Shown here: one piece after another, positions 1-17,559 of the stretch
Layout: each line of letters begins with the position of its first letter
Position numbering within the stretch: the first letter of the stretch is position 1
Assembly: GCA_016839515.1 (NCBI GenBank)
Contig: JAEOUE010000052.1
Span: 1-17,559 of the forward strand
From: Candidatus Hodarchaeum mangrovi
Lineage (GTDB): Archaea > Asgardarchaeota > Heimdallarchaeia > Hodarchaeales > Hodarchaeaceae
Reading direction: 5' to 3'
Length of the DNA: 17,559 nucleotides
Position numbers and translations under genes: made by a program
The notes under the pieces: model-generated
Database searches by the model: none
The model's input: only the letters and a program-made list of their open reading frames with translations
What the model was told of the DNA's origin: nothing

Positions 1-289
1 ATTTTGGGAAAAAAATTAACTATTAAGTCATTTTATGATATTTCGTATTGCTAGAGATACTTTTGGAAAGGAAAATAAGCATGTTCAACATAACATTCAA
101 TTTAATATCTATTTATTTTTAAAATAATTCTTTTTTCTAATAGAGACAGATATTAAGGAGAAATTTTGTTTTAAAAAGGACTAGATAAGAGTATTATAGA
201 TATAGAATTTTTTTAAAACATAATTGTGATTTTGAAAGAGAAAAAATCTTTCACTTAATGCAGATTAAATGTGAGAGTTCCTGTGACCA

Positions 290-1522
290 ATGAAAGACTC
301 TAATTTTGAAATTAGTCGTTTTTTTGAGAATAAATCAAATATTTTTCGCGATGAATCGATTTTTTCTCCCTCTTACATCCCAAATGTCTTAATCCATCGG
401 GAGGACACGCTCCGGCAGTTAACTAACTATTTTAAATCGATTTTTACATTAAATTTCCCTCCTTCAGGAAAATCTGTAATTATTCAGGGTTCTGTTGGAT
501 TAGGGAAGACGGTTGTTGTTAAAAAATTTGGCAAAGCTGTTGAAACCTTTTGTAAAAGCTCTTCCTCCCGTCCTTCAATGAAAATAATTTATTTTCATAT
601 TAATTGCAGGCGTCAAAGAACTTGGTATTTGGTGCTTACTTCTATACTAAGACATTTCATTCTTGCTTTTCCCCCTCGTGGATATAGTACTGATGAATTA
701 ATACAATTATTAACACGAATACTTAAAGAAAGAAATCAGCACCTCTTATTATGTCTTGATGAAATCGATTATTTAATTATTGATAAAAAAAGCCAAGATG
801 AATTATATTCCCTTATTCGTGGGCATGAAGAAGATTTAAATGACAATAGATCTCATATTTCCCTAATCTTAATCACAAGAGATCCCCATTTCCTTTTGTT
901 TTTGGATTCTGCCCTCTATTCATCCTTATCACAAACAATAATAGTCTTTTCAAAGTATTCAGAACAACAGCTATATGAAATTTTAATTGATCGGGCTAAT
1001 TCTGGATTGAAATCCACTACATATACAGAGGAAGTAATCAGGATGATTGCTTCATTAACATATGAAGTTGGGGATGTTAGATATGCAATTGAACTTTTAT
1101 GGAGGGCAGCAAAATTAGCAGAAAGTGAATTATCTTCCTCAATTGAGTTTGAACATGTGAGAAAATCTCATTCATGCATAATGCCAATTAAAAAGAGTGT
1201 TATTACTGACTTACCAATCCATCAACAATTTATTCTAATGGCTCTTGCTTTATTGTTGATAAATGATCGTTCAAAGTCTCAAATTACTACAATGAAATTA
1301 AAAGAGAAATATTATGAAATTTGTAAGAAAAACAGATTAAAACCACGAAGACAAACTCAATTCTGGGGTTATTTACAAAAGCTATCAGCTTTAGGACTAA
1401 TTAAACTGAATGTGTATAATAAACACAAAGAAGGAAAATCTTTAGGAAGGACAACTTGCATTAGTATTCATTCATTTTCAGCAGAGCAGCTAGTAGAACA
1501 AATTAATAATTTCAGCTATTGA
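290..1522 (+). CDS. cdc6: Orc1/Cdc6 family replication initiator (AAA+ ATPase plus C-terminal winged helix)
   Basis: N-terminal 'IFRDESIFSPSYIPNVLIHRE', Walker A GSVGLGKT, 'HINC', Walker B LLLCLDEID, sensor-2 region GDVRYAIELL, and wHTH ending 'YLQKLSALGLI...GKSLGRTT'. 410 aa is typical. Confidence 0.95.
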   Translation: MKDSNFEISRFFENKSNIFRDESIFSPSYIPNVLIHREDTLRQLTNYFKSIFTLNFPPSGKSVIIQGSVGLGKTVVVKKFGKAVETFCKSSSSRPSMKIIYFHINCRRQRTWYLVLTSILRHFILAFPPRGYSTDELIQLLTRILKERNQHLLLCLDEIDYLIIDKKSQDELYSLIRGHEEDLNDNRSHISLILITRDPHFLLFLDSALYSSLSQTIIVFSKYSEQQLYEILIDRANSGLKSTTYTEEVIRMIASLTYEVGDVRYAIELLWRAAKLAESELSSSIEFEHVRKSHSCIMPIKKSVITDLPIHQQFILMALALLLINDRSKSQITTMKLKEKYYEICKKNRLKPRRQTQFWGYLQKLSALGLIKLNVYNKHKEGKSLGRTTCISIHSFSAEQLVEQINNFSY

Positions 1523-2973
1523 TCATCTGCAATTCGCTTTAAAAACCGTGCTACAGCCTCCTCACGTAATCGTGAAAATCGGCTACTACTTTGGCCTACT
1601 TCATGATGTTTTTTAGTTGCCTCACCTTCTGTTATTCCTTTCTGATAATCAAAGATACAAACACTGTTTGAAAGAATCAAGATAAATAAGATCATTGGAA
1701 AGAATTGTGCTGACATGCCAGAAAGGACTAAAAGAGAAGTAAGGGATCCTATCACTAACCGTTCGTAAAGATCTTTTAATTGAAGAATGATTATTAGAAT
1801 AAGAGTAAAACCAATCAAAGTAAAAAGCCAAGTAAAATCTTCTAAACTAAACAAGAGTATAATTTCAGAGAAAATTGATCCTCCAAAAGAACCATCTAAG
1901 ATCCTTTGTTCGGTATTATAGAAAAATACAGTCGATTTTAGAGTTTCTATAATCCCAAAGGGGAGTAGAAAAATAAATGTTAATAAAATTGGGATCAAAG
2001 AGAGTTTTATTGCCGTAAAGTATTCTTTTTTATGCAAATATTGAATGAAATATCCAACAATAAAGATTCCTGCGAAATATTTTGAAAGCATACTTAATGA
2101 CCAGAACAACAATGTAAGACTGCCAATCTCTTTCTTATGAAAATACCACCCTGCAAAAAAGAGAGTTTGAGCCAAACATACATTATTCCAAATCATAATA
2201 GTAAAGAATACTAACCCAAGGAGTAGAGCCTCTTGTTTTTTGCATTCTAAGATTTTATGTATTAAAATAGATGAAATAGCCATAAAGAATAAATTTGTAA
2301 GTAAAATTCCCATTCCATTAAAACCTGGGAGAAATGAAACAATTCCTGTTGTGTTCAGTTCAGGTAGGATATTGAAAATATCGATCATTTCGAGTATAGG
2401 CTTGAAACTCCTAACAAAAGTGGTTAAAAGTAGATCTAGCATAAATCTAATTGGGAAGAACACTTCCATTTCCATAAATATCGCTGATATAAAACTTAGC
2501 AATCCTAGGAACAAGGAATATGTTAACAAATCAACTGGTAAATATGCATAGGTTGTAAGTCGAAATTCTCCTGGGATATCTGGAATAGCATGTCTAACTC
2601 CCTCTACGACATAAGGATTTTGCCCTTCCCATAGCAATCGTGCCCCATCTATTACTCCTACTGTAATATCCCCTGAAAAGGCAATATTTTGAAATAAAAA
2701 TAATATTAACAGAGACAAGCCAATTCCATAGTAGAAGATCTTGGTTGAAGCTTCAATTCTTTTTCTTGAATAAACAAAATAAATTCCATAAAAAATAACA
2801 CAATTGAAAGAAATTACTCCTATCCAATATGATTGGTCTAGAATCATGAAATTGTCATTAATCCATGCTAAAAGTATAAATAGAAAAATTGGAATGGAAA
2901 TAAGAATCCCCATAGTTAGCTCTGGATTTTCTTCTACTTTCTTTTTTACCCGAGAAAAAAGGCTTTCTGACAT
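1516..2973 (-). CDS. Polytopic membrane glycosyltransferase, GT-C fold (GT87/DUF2029/PIG-M-like)
   Basis: About ten or more hydrophobic segments. The first large loop reads 'GD...IDGARLLWEGQNPY...TTYAYLP', matching the D..a..l..G.nPY / Y.Y.P signature of GT-C mannosyltransferases; later 'SMLSKYF' motif. Its 3' end overlaps the cdc6 3' end by 7 bp. Confidence 0.65.
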   Translation of the reverse strand: MSESLFSRVKKKVEENPELTMGILISIPIFLFILLAWINDNFMILDQSYWIGVISFNCVIFYGIYFVYSRKRIEASTKIFYYGIGLSLLILFLFQNIAFSGDITVGVIDGARLLWEGQNPYVVEGVRHAIPDIPGEFRLTTYAYLPVDLLTYSLFLGLLSFISAIFMEMEVFFPIRFMLDLLLTTFVRSFKPILEMIDIFNILPELNTTGIVSFLPGFNGMGILLTNLFFMAISSILIHKILECKKQEALLLGLVFFTIMIWNNVCLAQTLFFAGWYFHKKEIGSLTLLFWSLSMLSKYFAGIFIVGYFIQYLHKKEYFTAIKLSLIPILLTFIFLLPFGIIETLKSTVFFYNTEQRILDGSFGGSIFSEIILLFSLEDFTWLFTLIGFTLILIIILQLKDLYERLVIGSLTSLLVLSGMSAQFFPMILFILILSNSVCIFDYQKGITEGEATKKHHEVGQSSSRFSRLREEAVARFLKRIADDQ

Positions 2974-3166: not shown

Positions 3167-3210
3167 AAAAAATAAAAAAAAGGGGGGAAAAGAGACCTAT
3201 CGTCTCTTTT
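3167..3210 (-). terminator. Hairpin plus oligo-U terminator of the surface protein gene
   Basis: Perfect 9-bp inverted repeat AAAAGAGAC (3188-3196) / GTCTCTTTT (3202-3210) with the TAG stop in the loop. On the minus strand it is followed by CCCCCCTTTTTTTTATTTTTT. Confidence 0.7.
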
Positions 3211-5608
3211 TGAAGAAAATTGGAATAGCTAGCAATCCAGAAATAATGAATATACCTTCAAAACCAGGAGTGAGTTCTATGGTTGTAGTTGTGGTCGTTG
3301 GGGTTGTAGTTGGGGGAGTTGTGGTTGGTGTTGGCCAATTTTCAGCATTGATATTGACTGTCATGTCAGAATAACTACCCATAGAGTCAAAGGATCCTGT
3401 AGATTTCCAGAAGTAGTATTCTTCACTGTAAGCTGAGACAGCGATTTCAACTATAGTTTTGGTGCTAGTATCGTTATCTGTGTTTTTACCATTGAATTCC
3501 AAGAAAGTATCCATTCCTGCATGAGTAACGTTTTCATTCCAATTCATACCGAAATTGAAGGCATTTATTACCATGGCATCACCAGGATCGTCTCCAACAG
3601 TACCAGTTAACATTGCTAAGAAGTCTGGATTTGTCAAGACATTGTTCATTGCATCCATGATTGCTTCGACGAGGGTCGGTAGTCCACCAACGACTTCCCA
3701 ATCAGGGGTTCTAACAGGAAGTGGTAACAACATTTTTGGATCGATTGGTATTCCAAACATGGGTCCAGTTTGGCTATCTTGAGCTCCAAGACCACCCATT
3801 GGTTTCATTGGCATCATGAACATATTCCACATAGAACCTTCTGGGATGTAAGTAGTATAGCCTGTTCCAGGCATCTCTTGAATTTCTAGGACAATAAGAT
3901 AGGGTGTATAGGTATTGAATGGAGAGGAGTTGTCAACTATCCATGTCTCATGATAAGTGTCATTGTACCATTGCATATCATAGGGATCGTAATAGGTGTT
4001 TTCAAATTCCCGATATTCTACAGGACCATTATAAAGACTTGATGGCAACAAATCTTGAACATTCTCAAGGAAGGTTTTATCCCAGTTATAGTACATATTC
4101 CACTCTTCTCTATCAAAAACGATGGCGTTTACTACACCTGGAGTATAAGGAATCCAAGTAGAATTTTCATCCTCTGCATATAGTGGATCCCAATTTTCAT
4201 ACCCATATTGATCATACCAATAATATCCATCTCGAACTTCCCAAAAGGAGGTGCTATTTGCATATATTCCTGCATCGAACATATTTAGGGCAATCTCCCG
4301 ATATCCATGATCACCACCTTCTCCAAACATAGGCATATAGTAATCTTCAATTGGTGGTAAGGGTTCTTGAGCACCAGTTCCTCCATTAAAGAATGGTAGA
4401 CGGTCACTCATGAATCGTCCGAGATCAAACATATAGCCATCGATTGTATAGTATAATCCATCCATGGAGGTGATGGTATAATTTAGGAGGTGATTTCCAT
4501 CCAGTTCATTAATTGATCCTACGATTGCAGTTAACATCTCATTTAACATATTTTCTAAGGTCTCATTTTCTAAATCAACCATAAGAGATAATGCAACATC
4601 CATAAGATATTCACCTTTATCTCCAACAGAGACAGGAATCATATCTTGGGTGGATTGATATAGATCAAATTCTAGATAGAAATGTTCATTTGACTCTAAG
4701 ATTCCATTTTCATTGAAATCCATCCAGAAATCAAAACTGAAATATGATAAGAACCCATTTGTGCTCCATGTTGCGTCAAGAGTAAAGTTTCCGAAGTCGG
4801 CTGTATCGTTTTCTGCTATTAGTTCTATGGTTAAATCAAAATCTGTTGTATAAACCGGTGTTACGGTGGTAGTGAAATTTATGTCTTCATTTTCAGTATC
4901 AAAGGGAAGAATGTCTTCAATGACTACTTCGTTGCTCCAAAAATTAAATGCATCACTTAGATCATCTAAGAAGATGATTGAAGGAGCAAAGAATGGTAAA
5001 CCTTCATAACCATAGTTATAAAACCAGTCATTTAGAGTTTCAAATTGTGAAAAGTTAGTAGCCATTTTTATTACTGGAAAAGGAGGAGTACCACTTCCAG
5101 CTGGCAATGTGAAGCTCGAAGGTAGCATGTCAATTGGGAATGTACTAGGAGGTTCAACTCCCTCTGGAATTCGCCATGAAATAATGACATCTTCACCAAG
5201 GGACATTGCAGCTTGAATATCCAAGAGACGGCCTTTTGCTGTTGTTTGATCGTTGACAATTTTTACAAAAACTTTACTGTTTTCGAAAGTACCATCAATA
5301 GCCCATTCTGGGCCTTCATATCCTTCTCCGCCGGGCATAAAGAACCCAACATTGAAGTACTCATCCAAAGGACTAATCATTTTTGTGACATTATAGTACA
5401 GATTGGTATTTACTAAGTCACTTGCAGCCATGGGTGTGGGACCAGTTAACCAATTATTCACCAGATTTATATCATATTCAATAGAATATGTTCCTGGAGG
5501 AGGTCCTTCAGCGAAAGGATCTTCTTGGGCTAATACTGGCGTACCAAATGCTCCAAAGAGCAACATACCCATGGCCATTATTCCAAGGATATAATAGCGC
5601 ATTTTCAT
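3197..5608 (-). CDS. Secreted acidic cell-surface glycoprotein with PGF-type C-terminal sorting signal (PGF-CTERM/Heimdall-CTERM-like), possibly S-layer-like
   Basis: Signal peptide MKMRYYILGIMAMGMLLFGAFGTPVLA|Q; very D/E-rich; many N-X-S/T sequons (NVT, NFS, NFT, NDT, NYT, NST, NSS); Pro/Thr linker, then TPGF, a TM helix and a basic tail KKRR. Confidence 0.85.
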   Translation of the reverse strand: MKMRYYILGIMAMGMLLFGAFGTPVLAQEDPFAEGPPPGTYSIEYDINLVNNWLTGPTPMAASDLVNTNLYYNVTKMISPLDEYFNVGFFMPGGEGYEGPEWAIDGTFENSKVFVKIVNDQTTAKGRLLDIQAAMSLGEDVIISWRIPEGVEPPSTFPIDMLPSSFTLPAGSGTPPFPVIKMATNFSQFETLNDWFYNYGYEGLPFFAPSIIFLDDLSDAFNFWSNEVVIEDILPFDTENEDINFTTTVTPVYTTDFDLTIELIAENDTADFGNFTLDATWSTNGFLSYFSFDFWMDFNENGILESNEHFYLEFDLYQSTQDMIPVSVGDKGEYLMDVALSLMVDLENETLENMLNEMLTAIVGSINELDGNHLLNYTITSMDGLYYTIDGYMFDLGRFMSDRLPFFNGGTGAQEPLPPIEDYYMPMFGEGGDHGYREIALNMFDAGIYANSTSFWEVRDGYYWYDQYGYENWDPLYAEDENSTWIPYTPGVVNAIVFDREEWNMYYNWDKTFLENVQDLLPSSLYNGPVEYREFENTYYDPYDMQWYNDTYHETWIVDNSSPFNTYTPYLIVLEIQEMPGTGYTTYIPEGSMWNMFMMPMKPMGGLGAQDSQTGPMFGIPIDPKMLLPLPVRTPDWEVVGGLPTLVEAIMDAMNNVLTNPDFLAMLTGTVGDDPGDAMVINAFNFGMNWNENVTHAGMDTFLEFNGKNTDNDTSTKTIVEIAVSAYSEEYYFWKSTGSFDSMGSYSDMTVNINAENWPTPTTTPPTTTPTTTTTTIELTPGFEGIFIISGLLAIPIFFKKRR
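3281..3334 (-). repeat. Low-complexity Pro/Thr linker (PTPTTTPPTTTPTTTTTT), likely O-glycosylated
   Basis: Run of ACN/CCN codons directly before the PGF sorting motif. Confidence 0.8.
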
Positions 5609-5955: not shown

Positions 5956-8367
5956 TTGACAATCCGTATTAGTCGAGAAAAAAAAGAATTACGGTTAAGT
6001 GTTCGCGATCTTGCTTTTTTGGGTACATCAGCCCAAGGAAGGAGTTATTTAAGTTTAAGAAACACAGAAACTGGTAAAGAATACCATCATCAGATTCAAC
6101 AACAAAAAATTGAAAGTGAAAAAGCTTATGAAATTGAATATTATATAAAACATCGTTTTGAAATTGATAATTGGCGAATTATTTTAAGGGGACGAGTTGA
6201 TTCCCTTTATAGAACTCCAGAAAAAATAGTAATCGAAGAAATTAAATCAATAAATTATAGGAACTTTACTGGTTCTCCTGAGGATCCACGACTTTATGTG
6301 TATAAGAATCAATTATTAAGTTATGCTTGGATGTTTTTTCAAAAGGATGGACTTCTCACTAACGTCGAACTGGCCTTAATTACTCTTAATCGATATGATA
6401 ATAAGCAATATATTATTTTATTTCCCTATGAAGATATCTCTGAGTTCATAAAGGATCGAATAAAGCAAATAATTTGCTATGAAGAGGAAAAAGCTCAACT
6501 TTATGAACAAAAAGTGAAATCTCTAGAAAATTTAGAATTTCCTTTTTCTTTTCGCCCATTTCAAGAAAAAATAATCCAGAAAATTCATGAATGTATAACT
6601 CAACGATTAAATCTTATTATTGAAGCACCAAGTGGATTAGGAAAGACAGTAGTTTCTATCTATCCTTTTCTACGGGAAGTTATTGAAAAAAAAGGAAAAT
6701 TATTTTTTATTACTGCAAAAACAACTCAGAAAACTATTGTAGAAAAAACCCTTGAAATTTTTCAAAATCAAGGGGTAAATTTTCTTTCTATTACTCTCAA
6801 AGCAAAGGAAAAAATGTGTACAAATTCGTTTTACTATTGTCACGAAGATTATTGTCCATTTTTGAATAATCATATTAAAAATCCCCCCAAAGATTACATT
6901 CAATTTTTTGTACAAAAGAGGGGGGTCATATACCCTGAATTAATTGAAGAAGAAGCATTGAATACATATGCTTTCTGTCCATTTGAACTAGCCTTAGATA
7001 TTTCATTAGAAGCTGATATTATCCTTGGGGATTACAATTATGTCTTTCATCCAAGTATTTCTCTTCAACGATATTTTAGTCGTCCTCCTTCAAAAATTGA
7101 TCAATTCTATTTAATAATTGATGAAGCACATAATTTAATAGATCGTAGCCGAGATTATTATTCTCATTCCCTAGGACAAAAAGAGGTTCTTGATTTTAAA
7201 CAGGCAATTCGGAAATTAAGAAGACGCATTCCTACTATACCTCTTCCTGATTCTATCCCCATTAATTTGGAAAGAATTTTCCGACGCATACAGGCTGAAA
7301 TTGATACTGGAGTATCGATTCACATTCTAAAGAGGATTGATATTCCTGCTTTCCAGAAAAATTTTACTCAATTCGAAGAAATTCTGCGAGAATATCTTAA
7401 TTTCCTTATGGATAAAGAACTCCATTGGCCTGATGATCCTTTATTGGATTTTTATTATCTTTTTCGTGATTTTGTCAATACTGCATTATTAGCACAAGAT
7501 GCAGAAGAATTTTCTATCCTTTATAGTTCCAACGAAGGCAGTATCAAGATTTTCTGTAAAGATGCTTCATATTTTCTAAATCAACGTATTAAAAAGTTTT
7601 TTAGATCAGTTATAGCAATCTCTGCCACAATCACTCCTTTTCCTTTTTATCGTGACCTTCTTGGATTTCCTGTTGAAAAGACTATTTATGCAAAATTTCC
7701 TTCTCCTTTTCCTCCAGAAAGGAGAAAAGTATTAATTATTCCAGAAATAGATACACGATATCAAAATAGAGAGCATTCGTACCAACATATCGCGCAACTT
7801 GTAATGGATCTTTGTTTGATTAAACCAGGTAAATATTTTGTGTTCTTTCCTTCATTTAAGTATGCTGATGAAGTCTCGAAATATCTTCAGGAAGATTCAG
7901 GTTTTAAAATTATTAAACAAGCCCAATATATGCAGGAAGAGGAACGATTCGAATTTTTACGACTCATAGAGGAAAATCCTTACATGATTGCCGTCGGTGT
8001 TACTGCAGGAATTTTCGCTGAAGGTATTGATTTGCCTGGTTTATTAGATGGAGTATTTATCATTAGTCCCAGTCTACCTTCTTACAATTTTGAACAAGAA
8101 TTGATTCGTCAATACTATGAAGAGAGATTTGGTAACGGTTTCAATTACGCGTATCAATTTCCAGGACTCACCAGAACTTTTCAAGCTGCTGGACGTTTGA
8201 TTCGTGATTCAAATGATCGTGGCATTATCGTTTTTATTGGGAGGAGATTCTCCACTCCAAAATATGCTGATTATTTTCCAGAATACTATTATCAAAATTC
8301 CCCTTCAGAACTAATTTCTACTAATCCAAAGAATGATATCAAGCAATTTTGGGATTCAATAAAATGA
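5956..8367 (+). CDS. PD-(D/E)XK (RecB-like) nuclease fused to an Fe-S XPD/Rad3/DinG family SF2 helicase
   Basis: N-terminal GKEYH, RGRVD, IEEIKS, QLLSY nuclease motifs. Helicase Q motif FRPFQ, Walker A APSGLGKT, Fe-S cysteines (KEKMC, YCHEDYCP, FCPFE), DEAHNL, ISAT, FFPSF, FAEGID, QAAGRLIR. TTG start. Confidence 0.92.
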   Translation: MTIRISREKKELRLSVRDLAFLGTSAQGRSYLSLRNTETGKEYHHQIQQQKIESEKAYEIEYYIKHRFEIDNWRIILRGRVDSLYRTPEKIVIEEIKSINYRNFTGSPEDPRLYVYKNQLLSYAWMFFQKDGLLTNVELALITLNRYDNKQYIILFPYEDISEFIKDRIKQIICYEEEKAQLYEQKVKSLENLEFPFSFRPFQEKIIQKIHECITQRLNLIIEAPSGLGKTVVSIYPFLREVIEKKGKLFFITAKTTQKTIVEKTLEIFQNQGVNFLSITLKAKEKMCTNSFYYCHEDYCPFLNNHIKNPPKDYIQFFVQKRGVIYPELIEEEALNTYAFCPFELALDISLEADIILGDYNYVFHPSISLQRYFSRPPSKIDQFYLIIDEAHNLIDRSRDYYSHSLGQKEVLDFKQAIRKLRRRIPTIPLPDSIPINLERIFRRIQAEIDTGVSIHILKRIDIPAFQKNFTQFEEILREYLNFLMDKELHWPDDPLLDFYYLFRDFVNTALLAQDAEEFSILYSSNEGSIKIFCKDASYFLNQRIKKFFRSVIAISATITPFPFYRDLLGFPVEKTIYAKFPSPFPPERRKVLIIPEIDTRYQNREHSYQHIAQLVMDLCLIKPGKYFVFFPSFKYADEVSKYLQEDSGFKIIKQAQYMQEEERFEFLRLIEENPYMIAVGVTAGIFAEGIDLPGLLDGVFIISPSLPSYNFEQELIRQYYEERFGNGFNYAYQFPGLTRTFQAAGRLIRDSNDRGIIVFIGRRFSTPKYADYFPEYYYQNSPSELISTNPKNDIKQFWDSIK

Positions 8368-8453
8368 GATAGAGAAGTAATAAAGTCATTAAATATCTTA
8401 ATTTTTATTCTATACTGAATAATTTTTAAATTATTTTAGAATTACATTATTCT

Positions 8454-9506
8454 ATGGATTACCAAGAATTATCTACTGAAGAAAAAACGCGTTATTCTAG
8501 ACAAATTGTCCTATCTGATATTGGTGAAGAAGGCCAGTTACGGATTAAAAATGCTCGAGTTTTAGTTCTCGGAATTGGAGGATTAGGCACATTTTCTAGC
8601 TTACTCCTAGCTGAGATGGGAATTGGGTATTTAAGAATCGTTGATCGGGATTTAGTGGAACAGAGTAATCTTCATCGAACTCCCCTTTATACTAAATATG
8701 ACTTAGATCGTGCAAAAGTTGAGGTTGCAGCTGAACGGTTGCTAAGTGTCAATCCTAATCTTATTATCGATCCTCATGCATGTCATATTGATGAATATAA
8801 TATTGATGAGTTATTAGAAGGGATTGATATTGTAATTGATGGTTTAGATAATTTTGAAACTCGCCGAATGGTAGGAAAAGCATCTAGAGACAAAAATATC
8901 CCTTATATTTTTTGTGGAGTAAGTGCTCGTTCCGCGAATATGAGTTTATTTAATTTAAAGGACTCTTCTGCTTGTATTTCCTGCCTTTATCATGGAATTG
9001 ATGATAATGAGTTAGAGAGCTGTGATATTACCGGTATACATCCAAGTTTACTTTCTGTTGCTACAGGAATTCAGATACATGAATGTATTAATGTAATAGT
9101 CTCGGGCACATCTATTTTAGATGGAAATTTGCTTATTATAGATTTAAGACAAATGAGCTTTGATCTCATCCCTATTCGAAAAAATCCAAAGTGTCTTGTC
9201 TGTTCAGATTTTCATGAGGAAAGTAAATCTATTAAGGAGGAAGGCTATCGTTTTGTTGATCTCTGTGGAGAATCAACTTATATGATAGTTCCTAAAGCTA
9301 AAAAAACATATGATATCGCTAAATTAAAGAAAGTTTTGGCTCAAAAATACTCTGTTCGACATGTGGGGAAATTTTCTCTTATTTTATCTTTACCTGATAA
9401 TGTTCAAATTTCAATCTTTAAGGGTGGTAATGTATTAGTTCGAAATGTTATCTCAAAAGATGCAGCATTAGATATCTGGCACAGAGTAGAAGAAGATATC
9501 AATTAA
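8454..9506 (+). CDS. MoeB/ThiF/HesA family E1-like adenylyltransferase with C-terminal extension
   Basis: RYSRQ, GIGGLG, DRDLVEQSNLHR, DGLDNFETR, Zn ligands CISC and CLVC, putative catalytic Cys in ESCDITG, and C-terminal 'LCG...IFKGGNVLV' extension as in Bacillus-type MoeB/ThiF. Confidence 0.92.
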   Translation: MDYQELSTEEKTRYSRQIVLSDIGEEGQLRIKNARVLVLGIGGLGTFSSLLLAEMGIGYLRIVDRDLVEQSNLHRTPLYTKYDLDRAKVEVAAERLLSVNPNLIIDPHACHIDEYNIDELLEGIDIVIDGLDNFETRRMVGKASRDKNIPYIFCGVSARSANMSLFNLKDSSACISCLYHGIDDNELESCDITGIHPSLLSVATGIQIHECINVIVSGTSILDGNLLIIDLRQMSFDLIPIRKNPKCLVCSDFHEESKSIKEEGYRFVDLCGESTYMIVPKAKKTYDIAKLKKVLAQKYSVRHVGKFSLILSLPDNVQISIFKGGNVLVRNVISKDAALDIWHRVEEDIN

Positions 9507-9774
9507 GTATTGAAAAACTGGGATTTTAGTTAACAATTATTGAGTAATCATAATCTTTGAATCCTAAAGTCTCGACTCATTTCTTTTACAATAATTTTAA
9601 TATAATGACTAATAATACAGAATAAAGCTAAAAAACGCGAAATTTAATATGCTACTATTATTATAATAGGTTATATATTTTTAAATTAACATGGAAGAAA
9701 AGAATATCGACTCTCCATTCTTTAGAATTTGCTGTATATTAATTCAGAACAAAGAAAAAAGTTGGTGCTAATCT

Positions 9775-10938
9775 ATGGCAGATGTTGTATTTTCCGCATT
9801 CGATGAAAGAACAGGACCTGTTGCAATTTTCAGTACCATTCAAGATCCAGTTCTAACCAAAAAAATTGCTGTTAAATCTATTGTCTCTACATTAACTTCA
9901 GTACGGACCAGTTCTTCCGAGCGACTGGAAGGCGAAGCTATTATTCCATTTCCTAATGAAAATCGAATTGCTTTCATCTTTTATACATCCTTAGACCAGA
10001 AAACTGAAGGAGGAGAGTACAGAGTAATTTCGTTAAGTGCAATAGTTGATAATCAGAAAAAATCAGGGTTATATTCTAATGCAACTATACTCTCTCAAGC
10101 TGCAGGGGAAATAAAAAATGCTCTAAATCGTGATTATAAATTTGGTCAACCTCTATCCAGTGAGCTTTCAGCAAGACTGAAAGGCTGGGGTGAACTTACT
10201 AAAACCCAAGAAATGGCTATTATTGCAGAGCGAGAAATTAAATTCGGTTTGAAAAGTCTTTTTGAAGTATTCCCTGTAAAATCTGGTTTTCGTTCATATG
10301 ACGATCCTTTAGTTCCTGTTTTTATAGGAGTATTATATAAAATCCCTGTTGTCCTTATAGGACCTAATGTTGAATTTTTACTAGAGATCGCAGATATTAT
10401 TAGAAGTTATATGCCTGAAGAAGAGTTGGATGTAAGACTTACCATTCCACTTGATTATAAATCCCAAGCTGTAGCATCTAAAATTCCTAGAGCTGATATG
10501 ATACTTCTTAATGAGGAACAGGATAAAAGAAAGAATTTCTATCGTGATCCTGTTATTACTGCTGGGATAGGGAAGGATTCTAAATTTATTAATTATTCCC
10601 CCCCTGAAAAGCCTCACAAGATTATCGAGAGGATAATAAAGAAGGCAAGGGAGTTTACTGATGAGATGGTGGCCAATCATTATCTTGCAGGAGAAATACT
10701 CTCTTATTTCACAAAATTAGATCATTTAAAGGACTATTGTTTGACTGGAAGAGAAGCAAGGGTAAGGGATATTGCGAAAAATTTTGATGTCGATGAGGAT
10801 TATATTATTACTTTAGCTGAGGGACTTCGAACTAGAATGGAAGTTTCGGAAGAGTCGCTAAATAAAATGCTCCAAGATGGCCCTCCTTTTTCTAAAATGG
10901 ATATACGTGGTCAGAAGAATATCGGATTCATACGTTAA
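9775..10938 (+). CDS. DENN-module protein (uDENN/longin + cDENN + dDENN), folliculin/SMCR8/NPRL2-like; eukaryotic signature protein
   Basis: N-terminal VVFSAFDERTGP (F-x4-GP uDENN start); 'AFIFYTSLDQKTEGGEYRVISLSAIV' longin hairpin; 'GVLYKIPVVLIGPNVEFLLEIADIIRSYMP' cDENN signature; helical C-terminus. GGTG SD-like motif at 9764-9767. Confidence 0.7.
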   Translation: MADVVFSAFDERTGPVAIFSTIQDPVLTKKIAVKSIVSTLTSVRTSSSERLEGEAIIPFPNENRIAFIFYTSLDQKTEGGEYRVISLSAIVDNQKKSGLYSNATILSQAAGEIKNALNRDYKFGQPLSSELSARLKGWGELTKTQEMAIIAEREIKFGLKSLFEVFPVKSGFRSYDDPLVPVFIGVLYKIPVVLIGPNVEFLLEIADIIRSYMPEEELDVRLTIPLDYKSQAVASKIPRADMILLNEEQDKRKNFYRDPVITAGIGKDSKFINYSPPEKPHKIIERIIKKAREFTDEMVANHYLAGEILSYFTKLDHLKDYCLTGREARVRDIAKNFDVDEDYIITLAEGLRTRMEVSEESLNKMLQDGPPFSKMDIRGQKNIGFIR

Positions 10939-12050: not shown

Positions 12051-13193
12051 TTAATTACATACCTCTGTTAAAACACTTTGAATCTTTTGAACTTCTTCTT
12101 CTGTCAAACCAGGATGGATGGGAACTTCAAAATGAGATCTCGCTATCTTTTCTGTTATGGGGAGAGTCAATTTAGAATATTCTGGATATTCAACATACTT
12201 ACTCCATCTCCAAGACTTAATCCCTTCTTTGTAAGTTGGTTGTTGGTGGCATGGAATTGCATAAATTTGCCTTGATCCAACTCCTTTATTGTTCAATTCT
12301 TTCACTATTTCAGGAGCTGTCTTATTTGATGACTCTTCAACCACAGGAGCGCAAATATAGTGACTATGTACTACCCCTTTAGGAATTCTTTGCGTTCGGA
12401 TAGAAGATAATTCATCTATAGTTTTACGAATAGCATTTGCATTTTTTGCACGTTGAGCTAGCATCTTTGGAAGTTTATTAATCTGGATTAATCCAATTGC
12501 AGCAAGTGGATCAGCTAATCGGTAATTATAGCCGATTGTATAATGATTATACCCTCCCTGAGGACTTCTTCCATGATTTTTGATACTTCGAATTACAGTT
12601 GCTAATTCATCATCATTTGTAATTACCATTCCTCCTTCACCAGTTATCATATTTTTTGTTGCATAAAAAGAAAAACATCCAACGTTTCCAAACGTTCCAA
12701 CATGCTTTCCATCTATTCGTGCTCCATGAGATTGACATGCGTCCTCAATTACTAACAAATTATGCTCTTCTGCGATATCATTTATTGCTTTCATATCCGA
12801 GGGTAAACCAAAAATATGTATTGGTAAGATTGCTTTTGTTTTTGGTGTGATTAATTCTTCAATTTTTTCTGGATCTATATTATAGGTTTCAGGATCTATC
12901 TCTGCAAAAATTGGAATACACCCTCCAAAGCTAATAGAGTTTGCTGAAGCTATAAAAGTAAATGATGATGTTATAATTTCTGAGTTAGGGGGAATTTTCA
13001 ATCCTTCAATTGCCAAATGTAAAGCAGCTGTTCCATTGACAGTACATATAGCATGTTTTACTCCTGTAAACTTTGCAAATGCATCTTCTAGCGATCTTGC
13101 GTTTTTTCCTTCTACTAAACCTTTTGATCTTACTGTTTCAGCTACTAATGACACTTCTTCTTCAGAGATCTGTGGCTGTGCAACAAATTTCAT
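12051..13193 (-). CDS. DegT/DnrJ/EryC1/StrS family PLP-dependent nucleotide-sugar aminotransferase
   Basis: NGTAALH, FTFIASAN, EDACQSHGA, FSFYATKNMITGEGG (PLP lysine), GYNYRL, VPIHPGL. AAGGAG SD-like motif upstream on the minus strand (13205-13210). Confidence 0.95.
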   Translation of the reverse strand: MKFVAQPQISEEEVSLVAETVRSKGLVEGKNARSLEDAFAKFTGVKHAICTVNGTAALHLAIEGLKIPPNSEIITSSFTFIASANSISFGGCIPIFAEIDPETYNIDPEKIEELITPKTKAILPIHIFGLPSDMKAINDIAEEHNLLVIEDACQSHGARIDGKHVGTFGNVGCFSFYATKNMITGEGGMVITNDDELATVIRSIKNHGRSPQGGYNHYTIGYNYRLADPLAAIGLIQINKLPKMLAQRAKNANAIRKTIDELSSIRTQRIPKGVVHSHYICAPVVEESSNKTAPEIVKELNNKGVGSRQIYAIPCHQQPTYKEGIKSWRWSKYVEYPEYSKLTLPITEKIARSHFEVPIHPGLTEEEVQKIQSVLTEVCN

Positions 13194-13335: not shown

Positions 13336-14037
13336 ATGGATTCAGCTGTATCACTTGATAGAATTATCAAAAATTATCAACACGTTGTTTCAATAGTAAA
13401 ATCTTATTCTTCAAATAATATAACTCCAAAAATAGTCATTGTTACCAAAAACCAGCCACTAGAACGAATTTCAGAACTAGCAGAGTATATAGATTCTCCA
13501 ATCTTTGGAGAAAATCGTTTTGAGGAGGCTATTGGTAAAATCGATGAATTGCAGAATCAAGATATTGAGTGGCATTTTATTGGTCATTTGCAACGAAATA
13601 AAGTTAAAAAGCTTGTTGGAAAAGTAGCAATGATTCAATCATTAGACCGATTGCCTCTTGCTCTAGAAATACAAAAAAGAGCATCTAATAAAGAGCTAAT
13701 TGTCGATTGTCTTCTTCAAATAGATATTAGTCGTGATGGAACAAAATTCGGTCTTGTTCCTGATGAAAAGCAAATAATTATTTTTTTAAAGGAAATTGAA
13801 AAACTTAAAAACTTGAGGATTTGTGGTTTGATGACCATTGCACCTTTTATTGAGGCTAAGCGAACACAATCTTACTTTCGTCAAATGAGAAGTATATTTG
13901 ATAAGCTAAAGGATCTTCCATTACCAATTAATGTTGAATTGAAGACTTTATCTATGGGAATGTCGAATGATTATCAGTTCGCTTTGAAAGAAGGATCAAA
14001 TATGGTGAGGTTAGGCACCGTTATTTTTCAAAAATGA
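13336..14037 (+). CDS. yggS: YggS/PLPBP family pyridoxal-phosphate homeostasis protein
   Basis: IVIVTK (PLP Lys), FGENR, WHFIGHLQRNKVK, TKFG, GLMTI, LSMGMSNDY, EGSNMVRLGTVIF. Confidence 0.95.
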   Translation: MDSAVSLDRIIKNYQHVVSIVKSYSSNNITPKIVIVTKNQPLERISELAEYIDSPIFGENRFEEAIGKIDELQNQDIEWHFIGHLQRNKVKKLVGKVAMIQSLDRLPLALEIQKRASNKELIVDCLLQIDISRDGTKFGLVPDEKQIIIFLKEIEKLKNLRICGLMTIAPFIEAKRTQSYFRQMRSIFDKLKDLPLPINVELKTLSMGMSNDYQFALKEGSNMVRLGTVIFQK

Positions 14038-14118: not shown

Positions 14119-17100
14119 ATGATGACTGCCCAAGAGGAAATTTTTTCACTTAATAAGACTGAAATCAAACTTTTTTCTACTTTAATAACATTTGGCGCAC
14201 AAACTAAACGAGATTTATTTATTAATTCTGCTGTAGCCGATGAAAAAGCAGAAAATTCACTTGCATCCTTGATTACTAAAGGATTAGCACGTCAGGATAA
14301 AGAGTCAGGAATAATCTTCTCTACACTCCCATTAAAGAATTTAATTACACTCTTAGAAAGGAATAATGAAAAATTACAAACAAATTTGAAGCAAGATTAT
14401 CAGGGTATTAGAAAATCCTTTGAGGAAAATTTACAAAAATTCAAAGAAGTTAATGAAAAACAACTAGAAGAGTTAAAAACATCCAATCTAGTATTAAAAT
14501 CAGCTTTAAAGAAAGAATGGGATTCTTCTGAGCAGCTACGAAGAGAGAAATCTGAGGAATACATAGAAGATGTTTTAACTTCCACAAGTAATCGTGTTTC
14601 TGAAGTTCAAGCAAAATTTGATGGTATTTTTACAGCTAAAAAAGCCTCACATGAAAAAAAATGGACAGATGCAGTGGATCAATTTCAAAATATTCAAGAC
14701 ATCAGTTCTAGAATTCTACGAGAATCAATCACAAAATATGAAAAACAGCTTTTGGAGATTATAAGATCTACAAGTACTCGTATAAACACAATTCAAACAC
14801 GAATATTAGATATTATAACTACTCTCGAAACAGAATCGAATGTTCAAATGCAAGAGTTTTTTACAAACACTGAATCCACTTCTAATGAGTTTAAAGGAAA
14901 TTTAATGAGTGGACTAGAAACCTCTCGAAATTATGAAAAAAATTTTGTGAATGAACTAAAAAAGCAAATCCAATCATCTCTAGAAGCAGATATTTCGAAA
15001 GCATTGAGCAGTGTCATCACTCAAATTGCTCAGGATATTGATAAAGAAATCGAAGATGCCCTTGTCGGTGTTAAACGGAAAACCGAGAACATTATTAAAG
15101 ATAACTCACAACAAATAAAGCAAGAATTTCAAGAATTTGTGGATAACGCATCAGAGTTAATCTCGGAGCAAAAATCCCCCATAAATGTTTTACAATCTGA
15201 GATATTGGAACTTTCGACGGAACAAAAAATTACTACCCAACAAGATCTTTTTTTAAAACAATTTGAATCACTCCTTACATCAGATCTTGTAGCTCTTGAA
15301 ACAAACTACCGTAAAGTTCAGAAAATGGCAATTGATGTAATGGAAAATATAAGACGAGATGCCAAGAAACAATTAATCACACAAAGTTCTGAATTTGAAC
15401 GGTTAATTCAAATTTTCTATGAAAATTTAGAAAAATCAATAAATCGAAAAGATACAGATGTCGTTCGACTCCACCAACTATCACAATCTGTTAATGAATT
15501 CCTAAGAAATCTTTTGATTTCGATTCCATCAAGAGCAAATCAATTGAAAACACAATTAAATGAATCCTTTAAACTAACTTCAAGCGAATTGGAAAAGAAC
15601 ATGGGGGGACAATCTCTGACTTCTTTAAAAGAAATAAATGAAAAAATTTCTGATTCGCAAAAGAGAGTTGTTAAGATTTTCAATGAAACTACTAGTGAAG
15701 GAGAAAAAGAGATCCAGAATTTATTATCATCTTCAGATCATATTCTTAATGTAGTATCTTCTTTACATGAAAGTTTAAATGAAAAAATTCAAAGTCGGTT
15801 TGAACAACGTTCAAAAGTCCTTACTACGGAAATAGATGCAGTTTCAAGGAATTATCAGCAAGTTCTTTCAGGTTTAGAATCAGATTATACTGATATTTAT
15901 GATAGAATTGAAGCACAAAATATTTCAAATATGAATGATATTGAAACAAATTTACAAAACTCAACACTTCACCTTAAAACTGAAGTTGATAGTATTTTTG
16001 GTAAAACAGGCCAAAATAATAGAGAATTTCTTACCCAACTAGAAACAAATCTTCAAAACCAAATAGAAAGAATACTAAATGTCGTTAAAGAAGGTTTTAA
16101 TCAAATTAAAAAAGAATTCACAACAGAATTGAATGTTCAAGTAGAGAATGTCGAGAAGAACAATAAAACGTCTCATGATGCATTACAAACTGTAATCGAT
16201 GGTTTTTCTGAACAAACAAACCAATTTATCGATACTTATAAGTCAGAGATAAAACAAGCAGTTGATGAAAGAGAGAAAATGTTCTTAGATTTAGTTGACG
16301 AAAATCGTAGAGCTGTTGATGAGGTGATTGGATTACATAAATCACAGATCACTAAATATCAAGAAAAAGGGCCAACAGATATTTTGACTTTCATCAGCCA
16401 AATCGAAACTGAAGTATTAAACCAGAATAAAAATCTTAAAGGTGCATTAGAAGAAATTCAATCTGTTTATGATGGTTTATATGATTCAACAATGGATGAG
16501 GTTTCAGGATTAATTAAACAAGTACAAGAAAGCGCAGAAAAGTTGTCCTCTGTTGTTTCTGGATCTTTACAGGCAATTTCCACAAGTTTATTGCGTACTA
16601 ACGATCAGATTGAATCTTACTTTGTAGAGTCGATTTCAGAGTTAGAGAATCAGGTAGATGTCGCAACTGGTTTTGTTACTTCTGAAATCGAAGCTTCTTC
16701 TCAATCAGTAGAAGAGGAAGTAAAAGTATTGCGAAGTGAAATGGAAGATACCATTAAAAAACTGAGTACTGAAATTAAGGATTCTATCGCTCATCAAGAT
16801 CAAGAGTATCAAACAAAAATACCTGAAATTGGCCAAAGCTTTTCACAGGCGTTCGATGGACTTATTCAGGAAAGAACAAAATTAAATCAAGAATTAGAAC
16901 AAAAAACTAAAGAGAATCTAAGTAATTTGACTGAGAATTGGCAAAAGCAAATAGAAAAAACTAAAAATAGGCTTCAGGAAGTTACTGAGAGTATAGAAGT
17001 CGCTATCCAAACCAATATAGAAAATATGGAAATTATTGCAGATAAAAACACTGAATTAACTATTAAAAGACTCAATGAGGTTTTAAATCTCGATTCTACT

Positions 17101-17559
17101 GAAGATCTGTTTGGATTAAATGAAATTAAAACAACGGTAAAACAATATAATAAAAGGCTTAAGACTGCAATAAGTGATAGTTTAAAAATTCATTTAGAGG
17201 ATTTTGATAAGAAATTACCAGAGTTGTTAAATTCTTATGATGCTATTCATACTCAGACGGAGGATGATATGACTAGATTCATTGAAGATTTTACAGACAT
17301 GATATCAAGTTATCGAACTACATTTACAGCTCGTTTTCATGATTTTTTGACTGAAGAACGGAAAGAACTAGATTTTTCTGAAGTTAAAGAAGAATTAAGT
17401 AGTTTTACTAGAGATTTTTCACAAGTCTCCACGAAAAATATTGAAGATATTATCAATGATTTGACCGAAAGAGTTCAAACATCTCTAAAGAATGTTAATG
17501 AATCTAAAGACAAAATACAAGAATTAATTACAGAATTAGCCTTAACGATCGATGAAGAG
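14119..17559 (+). CDS. Giant protein (at least 1147 aa, 3' truncated): N-terminal TrmB-like winged HTH followed by a very long amphipathic coiled coil
   Basis: Not in the ORF track because no stop occurs in the window. Frame +1 from ATG 14119 (in-frame TGA at 14116) reads MMTAQEEIFSLNKTEIKLFSTLITFGAQTKRDLFINSAVADEKAENSLASLITKGLARQDKESGIIFSTLPLKNLI..., a TrmB-like pattern. It continues as E/Q/K/L/I-rich, Pro-poor helical sequence to ...ELITELALTIDEE at the window end. Start may be 14122. Confidence 0.85.
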   Translation, partial: MMTAQEEIFSLNKTEIKLFSTLITFGAQTKRDLFINSAVADEKAENSLASLITKGLARQDKESGIIFSTLPLKNLITLLERNNEKLQTNLKQDYQGIRKSFEENLQKFKEVNEKQLEELKTSNLVLKSALKKEWDSSEQLRREKSEEYIEDVLTSTSNRVSEVQAKFDGIFTAKKASHEKKWTDAVDQFQNIQDISSRILRESITKYEKQLLEIIRSTSTRINTIQTRILDIITTLETESNVQMQEFFTNTESTSNEFKGNLMSGLETSRNYEKNFVNELKKQIQSSLEADISKALSSVITQIAQDIDKEIEDALVGVKRKTENIIKDNSQQIKQEFQEFVDNASELISEQKSPINVLQSEILELSTEQKITTQQDLFLKQFESLLTSDLVALETNYRKVQKMAIDVMENIRRDAKKQLITQSSEFERLIQIFYENLEKSINRKDTDVVRLHQLSQSVNEFLRNLLISIPSRANQLKTQLNESFKLTSSELEKNMGGQSLTSLKEINEKISDSQKRVVKIFNETTSEGEKEIQNLLSSSDHILNVVSSLHESLNEKIQSRFEQRSKVLTTEIDAVSRNYQQVLSGLESDYTDIYDRIEAQNISNMNDIETNLQNSTLHLKTEVDSIFGKTGQNNREFLTQLETNLQNQIERILNVVKEGFNQIKKEFTTELNVQVENVEKNNKTSHDALQTVIDGFSEQTNQFIDTYKSEIKQAVDEREKMFLDLVDENRRAVDEVIGLHKSQITKYQEKGPTDILTFISQIETEVLNQNKNLKGALEEIQSVYDGLYDSTMDEVSGLIKQVQESAEKLSSVVSGSLQAISTSLLRTNDQIESYFVESISELENQVDVATGFVTSEIEASSQSVEEEVKVLRSEMEDTIKKLSTEIKDSIAHQDQEYQTKIPEIGQSFSQAFDGLIQERTKLNQELEQKTKENLSNLTENWQKQIEKTKNRLQEVTESIEVAIQTNIENMEIIADKNTELTIKRLNEVLNLDSTEDLFGLNEIKTTVKQYNKRLKTAISDSLKIHLEDFDKKLPELLNSYDAIHTQTEDDMTRFIEDFTDMISSYRTTFTARFHDFLTEERKELDFSEVKEELSSFTRDFSQVSTKNIEDIINDLTERVQTSLKNVNESKDKIQELITELALTIDEE

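Follow-up and report, generated by a model that had tools for sequence, protein, structure and literature searches.

A folliculin-like longin–DENN protein of Hodarchaeales with a conserved GP pocket loop and no aligned finger arginine

Introduction

Were Rag, Arf and Rab GTPases already switched by regulators of the FLCN–FNIP, C9orf72–SMCR8 and GATOR1 type in the archaea from which eukaryotes descend? This wider question is raised by a 17,559-nt stretch of Candidatus Hodarchaeum mangrovi DNA (contig JAEOUE010000052.1; hereafter the window), in which one open reading frame (ORF) encodes a protein of 387 amino acids (aa) that we call P0001. An initial annotation, made from the sequence alone, had described P0001 as a compact relative of the FLCN, SMCR8 and C9orf72 class, with a longin domain followed by a DENN domain. 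In eukaryotic longin GTPase-activating protein (GAP) heterodimers, one subunit carries an arginine finger, whereas the other, of the C9orf72, FNIP or NPRL3 type, carries none. Here we ask whether P0001 belongs to this class and which of these roles it could play.

Results

The predicted fold of P0001 is closest to folliculin

The longin–DENN ORF is a real, conserved gene, and its product is a soluble protein. All five motif strings quoted in the initial annotation are present in the translation, in the claimed order from longin through cDENN to helical segment (Table 1). One boundary needs revision: the cDENN block had been placed at 10309–10416, and its end is correct, but its true start lies 12 nt later, at 10321.

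We modelled P0001 with AlphaFold2 from a 31-sequence alignment (A1) and without templates. The model had a mean predicted local distance difference test score (pLDDT) of 85.7 and a predicted template modelling score (pTM) of 0.59, and confidence was low only at residues 42–48, 145–155 and 227–231. A longin fold had been anticipated at about residues 1–125 and a DENN core at about 155–275; the model contains both, as a longin domain that extends to about residue 145, with the elements of residues 3–140 in longin order, and a DENN domain spanning 157–356, whose core holds PVVLIGP (191–197) and KIPRAD (236–241). The tripartite DENN fold characteristic of DENND-type Rab guanine nucleotide exchange factors (GEFs; DENND1, DENND10, DENND11) is likewise present. 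The C-terminal tail is modelled as a helix (359–365) and a strand (382–386) with block-mean pLDDT of 88–93, and its residue G384 is invariant in A1.

A Foldseek search of the PDB with this model returned 21 matches at E ≤ 0.001, headed by the FLCN chains 6nzd_H (E 5.6e-9), 8dhb_J and 6ulg_L and followed by chains of the C9orf72–SMCR8 complex, DENND10, FNIP2 and DENND1B. We also used VIA-align 2, an independent structure search against representatives, in which chain identities were assigned from residue ranges and a profile search. FLCN scored 17.0 over 309 residues (P0001 residues 1–356; the FLCN chain range runs to residue 555), ahead of the Lokiarchaeal longin domain (15.0; 2.6 Å over 139 residues; P0001 1–149), the Lst4 longin (12.7; 2.7 Å over 130; 1–146) and the crystal structure of the FLCN C-terminal DENN domain, 3v42 (12.5; 3.3 Å over 175; 157–356). 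C9orf72 (12.4), SMCR8 and DENND10 (11.7 each), DENND1A (10.2) and FNIP2 (9.0) scored lower. The longin and DENN domains of the model each superpose well singly, and the large whole-chain root-mean-square deviation arises because their relative placement differs. As modelled, P0001 has folliculin as its closest solved structure. A two-copy complex prediction from A1 scored 0.01 against a mark of 0.42; run without controls, it is evidence neither way. We also considered the C-terminal region 325–387 as a DNA-binding winged helix and rejected this assignment, having found no family or fold match; FLCN alignments cover the chain up to residue 356.

Profiles connect P0001 to archaeal Folliculin-type longins

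Taken as a single sequence, P0001 shows no significant resemblance to the class in any test; the resemblance becomes significant with profiles and structure. Neither PF11704 (Folliculin) nor PF16692 (Folliculin_C) matched P0001 at E ≤ 0.1, and nothing relevant was returned from the PDB by phmmer with P0001 or by a search with the A1 profile. The link emerges through relatives. Four of 24 distant relatives scanned against Pfam matched PF11704 at E ≤ 0.01; one of these four, P0084, for which phmmer found no PDB match, exceeded the PF11704 cut-off (33.6 versus 23.3 bits). Among the 24, one further relative gave a weak Folliculin_C match. When the family was compared by hhalign with five Pfam-Folliculin-type archaeal longins, two of them above the PF11704 cut-off and three at 21–23 bits, the probability was 99.8% (E 1e-29, 302 columns).

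A 35-sequence profile, which includes distant relatives, matched the solved Lokiarchaeal longin domain (E 5.8e-4) and DENND10 (E 0.12). It also matched SMCR8, at a whole-sequence E of only 0.036, over two segments whose order is correct: the longin domain around 129–150 and the DENN domain at 720–756. The second of these is the same block to which the initial annotation had likened the P0001 cDENN motif. Language-model neighbours, which we treat as leads only, were a Heimdall cluster (0.96; 23% of its members with PF11704), a eukaryotic C9orf72-like cluster (0.89) and FLCN (0.88). Because folliculin best matches the model and the profile link reaches E 1e-29, the earlier reading of the fold holds: with its longin and DENN folds and its kinship to Pfam-Folliculin-type archaeal longins, P0001 is, by profile comparison, homologous to the FLCN/SMCR8/C9orf72 class.

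The orthogroup keeps the pocket loop without the canonical finger arginine

According to a 2025 study (PMC12290439, section 2.4), a GP motif in the beta1–beta2 loop sets apart the GAP-type longins, namely FLCN, SMCR8, C9orf72 and NPRL2, and is missing from DENND proteins. The same study identified SMCR8 R147 as the arginine finger and W33-D34 and G38-P39 as essential residues of C9orf72, and reported that FLCN/SMCR8-type longins of Heimdallarchaeia retain both the GP motif and the finger. We examined these positions in 115 family proteins aligned to the profile, divided into the P0001 orthogroup (P0001–P0076) and a distant set (P0077–P0116).

The pocket motif F9-D10-x-(R/K)12-x-G14-P15 is almost fixed in the orthogroup, where D10, G14 and P15 each occur in 65/65 sequences, F9 in 64/65 and a basic residue, R or K, at position 12 in 63/65 (K in 12/65). 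Counts in the distant set were 36/37 for D10 and for G14, 27/37 for P15, 30/37 for F9 and 16/37 for R or K at position 12. The finger position presents a different picture. At residue 79, in the beta4–beta5 hairpin loop, arginine or lysine occurs in 0/68 orthogroup members (G in 35, T in 25, S in 3, D in 2 and E, V and N in one each), while 9/40 of the distant set have R-G at positions 79–80. Four residues on, position 83, at the start of beta5, is arginine in 65/68 of the orthogroup, the three exceptions carrying S, Q or V, and in 13/34 of the distant set.

Residue 79 was assigned to the finger through the SMCR8 string ARGFVR, of which R147 is the first arginine in HMMER alignment coordinates. 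MAFFT, HMMER and hhalign all pair G79 with the first arginine of ARGxxR and R83 with the second; the hhalign partners are Pfam-Folliculin-type archaeal longins that carry ARGxxR. In FLCN, we take the finger to be R164. As judged from these alignments, the orthogroup keeps the F-D...G-P pocket loop without the canonical finger arginine, and with 0/68 members carrying it, a folliculin-type GAP mechanism operated by P0001 alone is unlikely.

Occurrence and conservation of P0001 homologues

A word-indexed search of 5.8 billion proteins recovered 66 P0001 homologues at E ≤ 0.001, mostly 383–397 aa long, with full-length identity from 93% down to 30%. They keep the N-terminus MADV(V/I)FSAFDE and are labelled 'hypothetical protein' in public records. 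Where named, their sources are Heimdallarchaeota or Hodarchaeales metagenome genomes, together with two that depositors named Promethearchaeota and Odinarchaeota. When 1.84 billion cluster representatives were scanned exhaustively with HMMER, 55 matched, 14 of them at E ≤ 1e-30; the weaker ones cover only the N-terminal 120–220 residues. Mean column identity in A1 is 49%, and its 25 invariant columns include D10, G14, P15, the block G53-E-A-I-x-P-F-P60, W138, G196 and G384.

A match at E ≤ 1e-5 occurs in 57/400 genomes across the phylum. Within the window's own genus-level group, only 8/22 genomes, with the window's genome counted in, contain a full-length orthologue (E ≤ 1e-158); two more genomes hold partial or interrupted copies and two a 152-aa longin-only frame. 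P0001 is single-copy in the window's genome (91% complete), with no detectable paralogue, and no second longin–DENN gene was found there.

Several relatives depart from the standard architecture. The congeneric 152-aa frames (G069:C4:96933-97346 and G070:C13:98847-99257; loci L046 and L047) match residues 3–140 at E 1e-55 and represent either a truncated gene or an orthologue that consists of the longin domain alone. In another genome (G073:C8:38492-39826; L045, also L010), the orthologue is a 460-aa ORF inside a longer open frame of 491 aa; the overlap of its N- and C-terminal matches in this region suggests inserted sequence at the longin–DENN linker. A closed genome of another Asgard family (L074, G116:C1) carries three tandem relatives on the plus strand, of 372 aa (6091–7209), 375 aa (7515–8642) and, as a longin-only form, 166 aa (8896–9396); a 306-aa ORF follows them, and its counterpart in L073 matches a winged helix-turn-helix (HTH). 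Among proteins of 679–2000 aa we found no fused forms of the family, which is weak evidence.

Candidate clients and partners are encoded elsewhere in the genome

The window's genome has 26 Gtr1/RagA matches, eight of which score above 79 bits in frames of 303–756 aa, and 52 Arf matches. A whole-genome search with PF11704 identified two loci, neither of them that of P0001. One, on contig C238 of this genome (G000; L011 652–1920, minus strand), encodes an arginine-bearing Folliculin-type longin of 422 aa with FDEEHGP and ARGKNR, which matches PF11704 at 28–29 bits, above the cut-off. Beside it on the same strand lie genes for a 120-aa zinc-ribbon protein (1931–2293) and for a 160-aa protein with a weak Roadblock/LC7 match (2309–2791; 21.3 bits, cut-off 23). 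The other, on contig C289, is a weaker PF11704 match inside a 1531-aa frame.

The downstream gene P0068 is a probable operon partner

The order ThiF, longin–DENN, P0068, DegT, YggS recurs in related Hodarchaeota genomes (Table 1). P0068 adjoins the longin–DENN gene in 7/9 related loci and in 7/8 loci of full-length orthologues, two sets that partly overlap, and it is a probable operon partner that would be co-transcribed with P0001. At L039, an orthologue with 59% identity has no P0068 downstream, and a search of eight loci of relatives from other families with the P0068 profile gave no ORF of this type. Loci L004, L005, L007, L008 and L010 have ThiF upstream of the orthologue, and L006 has a fragment of it; in L004 and L010 the upstream conservation includes the helicase gene.

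The family of P0068 is large and confined to Asgards, with 107 matches. The window's genome holds five copies, and the four paralogues sit in unrelated contexts with no GTPase or longin theme. The protein combines an N-terminal helical hairpin with a C-terminal domain of about 250 aa that is 59–60% identical even between paralogues and in which P103-S-W105, Q223, R227-G228, R232 and W340 are invariant. Its model (pLDDT 85.9) gave structural matches only for the hairpin, residues 1–93. PDB profile searches with P0068 returned only coiled-coil noise, Foldseek gave no match at E ≤ 0.001 and the ESM Atlas yielded nothing usable; for the C-terminal domain, which was modelled within the whole protein, there was no Pfam, PDB or Atlas match.

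Table 1 Features of the window and of the P0001 gene (positions in the window; residues of P0001)
Feature	Residues	Positions	Strand	Basis or remark
Orc1/Cdc6		290–1522
485-aa protein of unknown family		1516–2973	-	Overlaps the Orc1/Cdc6 end by 7 nt, tail to tail
803-aa protein, no Pfam domain		3197–5608	-	Last 24 residues: Heimdall-CTERM NF045529, 19.9 bits, below the cut-off of 24
XPD/Rad3-type helicase		5956–8367	+	DEAD_2, HBB, Helicase_C_2
ThiF/E1-like protein, 350 aa		8454–9506	+	Pfam ThiF E 1.8e-58; directly upstream of the longin–DENN gene
AT-rich 268-nt spacer, presumed promoter region		9507–9774	+	Read from the sequence
Longin–DENN coding sequence (P0001)	1–387	9775–10938	+	ORF list and translation; ATG start, stop codon included
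Longin domain	1 to about 145	9775–10209	+	Topology beta-beta-alpha-beta-beta-beta-alpha-alpha
VVFSAFDERTGP	4–15	9784–9819	+	String search of the translation
Pocket motif F9-D10-x-(R/K)12-x-G14-P15, beta1–beta2 loop	9–15	9799–9819	+	Orthogroup alignment
AFIFYTSLDQKTEGGEYRVISLSAIV	66–91	9970–10047	+	String search of the translation
Beta4–beta5 hairpin loop T77-E78-G79-G80-E81-Y82-R83	77–83	10003–10023	+	G79 at the arginine-finger position
Linker	146–156	10210–10242	+	pLDDT <50 at residues 145–155; length varies in A1
DENN domain	157–356	10243–10842	+	Alpha/beta core, then long helices 278–323
FIGVLYKIPVVLIGPNVEFLLEIADIIRSYMP	183–214	10321–10416	+	String search of the translation
KIIERIIKKAREFTDEMVANHYL	282–304		+	String search of the translation
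YFTKLDHL	311–318		+	String search of the translation
C-terminal tail	357–387	10843–10935	+	Short helix and final strand IGFIR; outside the FLCN-aligned stretch
P0068, 346 aa		10982–12022	+	43 nt after the longin–DENN stop
DegT-type aminotransferase		12051–13193	-
YggS-like pyridoxal phosphate protein		13336–14037
TrmB-HTH protein, >1147-aa open frame		14119–17559, runs off the window	+	TrmB-type HTH 24.8 bits, cut-off 25.6

The wider neighbourhood and occurrence of the locus

Upstream of the longin–DENN gene, the spacer may serve as its promoter region, and GGTG can be read directly in the sequence 9–12 nt 5' of the ATG. The segment 9400–12100 of the window is present in 20 DNA runs from seven sediment or soil studies; no RNA run was among those listed as holding it.

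Further features of the neighbouring genes are recorded here in their own right. The last 31 residues of the 485-aa protein match eRF1 domain 2 and aRF1 positions 165–195, and the 803-aa protein is probably a surface protein. The XPD/Rad3-type helicase has an extra N-terminal segment of about 190 aa with a weak PD-(D/E)XK nuclease match (E 0.0047). After its HTH, the TrmB-HTH protein continues for hundreds of residues that resemble coiled coil or amphipathic repeats of the apolipoprotein kind. The longin–DENN relative of two other Asgard families directly adjoins a gene for an AP_endonuc_2 protein (xylose-isomerase-like TIM barrel), in convergent or divergent orientation (L070 7095–7943, minus; L073 6718–7551, plus; L074 4939–5781, minus).

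Discussion

Comparison with known longin–DENN proteins

P0001 shares with FLCN, the catalytic subunit of the FLCN–FNIP RagC/D GAP (6nzd, 8dhb, 6ulg, 3v42), the order of longin and DENN domains and the GP motif in the beta1–beta2 loop. It differs from FLCN in having no Pfam Folliculin or Folliculin_C match, no arginine at the finger position, an additional C-terminal tail (357–387) and no identified FNIP-like partner. It is also shorter, at 387 aa compared with 579 aa. C9orf72, the arginine-less subunit of the C9orf72–SMCR8–WDR41 Arf GAP (7o2w, 7mge, 6lt0), likewise combines longin and DENN domains and has no finger arginine of its own. The F9-D10...G14-P15 spacing of P0001 equals that of W33-D34...G38-P39 in C9orf72, with Phe replacing Trp, and the C9orf72 cluster is the nearest eukaryotic one by language-model features, a lead only. 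Because arginine-bearing archaeal longins also keep F-D, however, this pair does not single out C9orf72; moreover, P0001 has no Pfam C9orf72-like match, and an SMCR8-like DENN partner was not found in its genome.

Longin–DENN proteins in FLCN domain order are already published for Heimdallarchaeia, and the kind is known from three sources. A preprint by Liu et al. (10.1101/2020.10.19.343400) describes Asgard DENN proteins, some from Heimdallarchaea with the exact FLCN domain organisation, and an operon of a LAMTOR1-like roadblock protein, a Rab-like GTPase and a DENN protein; the surroundings of P0001 differ from the operon as described there. The supplement of PMC12962969 lists two Hodarchaeales groups, cog.003844 and cog.003598, whose models have FLCN (covered 9–343) or KIAA1147/DENND11 (covered 3–380) as best match; both are flagged as eukaryotic signature proteins of 'Liu et al, 2021', and the P0001 orthogroup may be among them. 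The main text of that paper does not mention DENN, folliculin, FLCN, C9orf72, SMCR8 or longin. The Heimdallarchaeial FLCN/SMCR8-type longins of PMC12290439 (Traffic, 2025) share GP motif, longin fold and lineage with P0001 but keep the arginine finger, which the P0001 orthogroup appears to lack. Motif strings of P0001 do not occur in two text supplementary files of that paper, whose Asgard longin sequences are in Data S1. Within the same genome, the 422-aa longin of C238 resembles P0001 in its FD..GP loop and longin domain and aligns with the family by hhalign, but has the finger arginine, a C-terminal half that aligns poorly with the DENN domain and a Roadblock/LC7 neighbour.

A proposed role and its alternatives

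P0001 has a longin domain at its N-terminus and a DENN domain behind it, with a flexible linker between the two. By analogy with the class, we propose that its most likely activity is to bind a Rag-, Arf- or Rab-like small GTPase on the longin face, which carries the invariant F-D...G-P loop. Like C9orf72 or FNIP, P0001 may be a regulatory subunit or platform that has no finger arginine; it could also be a GEF-like or scaffolding factor. We assign a probability of roughly 55% to a role of this sort on a small GTPase, whether non-catalytic and in partnership or in exchange or scaffolding. To our knowledge, every studied longin–DENN protein acts on small GTPases, and the absence of the finger arginine, with G, T or another small residue at the site where FLCN, SMCR8 and related archaeal longins have it, favours a non-catalytic subunit or platform over a self-sufficient folliculin-type GAP.

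Several results weigh against this proposal. With Pfam, P0001 reached no family threshold, the only match being AmiA-like (13 bits, E 0.056), and NCBIfam gave no match. A pTM of only 0.59 leaves the placement of the longin relative to the DENN domain uncertain. The finger position was called from alignments of the loop rather than from superposed coordinates, and the near-invariant R83 or R/K12 could stand in spatially for the missing arginine. A Pfam scan found no GTPase, roadblock or longin gene near P0001 in the 17.6-kb window, nor was there a GTPase or roadblock gene among 24 Pfam-scanned neighbour ORFs from six relatives' loci in other lineages (L070, L071, L073, L074, L076 and L077; eight loci were fetched, and the ORFs of L072 and L075 were left unscanned). 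Whole-genome searches with PF16692, PF15019 and PF09804 gave nothing at E ≤ 1, although the PF15019 controls were also silent. The neighbourhood agrees with PMC10933270, according to which Asgard GTPase genes do not generally share operons with roadblock or longin genes.

If R83 or R/K12, the latter beside the GP loop, did act as a non-canonical finger, P0001 could itself be a folliculin-type GAP, possibly as a homodimer. The invariance in the orthogroup of the GP motif, which PMC12290439 ties to GAP-type longins, the high frequency of both residues and the rank of FLCN as best structural match would all fit. We nevertheless consider this unlikely: the alignments pair R83 with the second arginine of ARGxxR rather than with the finger, three members have S, Q or V instead of R83, and a lysine at position 12 in 12/65 sequences would be unusual for an arginine finger. 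The absence of a finger would instead suit a DENN-type GEF, like DENND1 for Rab35, whose DENN domain acts on a Rab- or Arf-like GTPase, and the DENN core motifs G196-P197 and P238-R239-x-D241 are strongly conserved. This reading is improbable, given that whole-chain matches to the FLCN class exceed those to DENND proteins by at least 5 Z units, that the GP motif is not found in DENND proteins (PMC12290439, section 2.4) and that neither the window nor the scanned loci of relatives yielded a Rab-like neighbour gene.

Gene order raises a further alternative, in which P0001 would regulate no GTPase and would instead be a longin–DENN scaffold for another process with P0068 and possibly the ThiF protein. 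The recurrence of ThiF, longin–DENN and P0068 in that order, the frequent adjacency of P0068, the gap of only 43 nt and the window's want of a GTPase gene speak for it. The order is conserved only within one genus-level group, however, and may therefore be inherited gene order; the L039 orthologue does without P0068, the P0068 paralogues of the same genome occupy unrelated contexts, and the general record of longin–DENN proteins as acting on small GTPases also counts against this idea, which we rate as distinctly unlikely. That the resemblance to FLCN and DENN proteins is a modelling artefact or convergence, with P0001 unrelated to either, is hardly credible. The lack of a direct Pfam or PDB sequence match and the modest SMCR8 profile match (E 0.036) would be expected in that case, but the longin and DENN domains each find their own matches, with the order preserved, the model was built without templates, and transitive homology to proteins matching Pfam Folliculin reaches E 1e-29.

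Within the preferred reading, that of a non-catalytic, partner, exchange or scaffold role on a small GTPase, one specific version would make P0001 the non-catalytic partner of an arginine-bearing Folliculin-type longin, such as that of C238, acting on one of the approximately eight Rag-like GTPases of this genome with P0068 as a lineage-specific third component. Taken whole, this arrangement is rather improbable.

Significance

P0001 fits the published record of such proteins in Heimdallarchaeia without changing it; its distinctive feature is the absent finger arginine. What is added here is a pocket loop kept without that arginine, in a single longin–DENN gene that adjoins P0068 and has no GTPase gene nearby. 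P0001 offers a small, single-copy, confidently modelled FLCN-fold protein from Hodarchaeales with its GP pocket intact, and together with the arginine-bearing longins and the Rag- and Arf-like GTPases of one genome it forms a concrete set for binding and GTPase assays. If P0001 did pair with an arginine-bearing longin, Hodarchaeales might already have divided the work between a catalytic and a non-catalytic subunit, as eukaryotic longin GAP heterodimers do.

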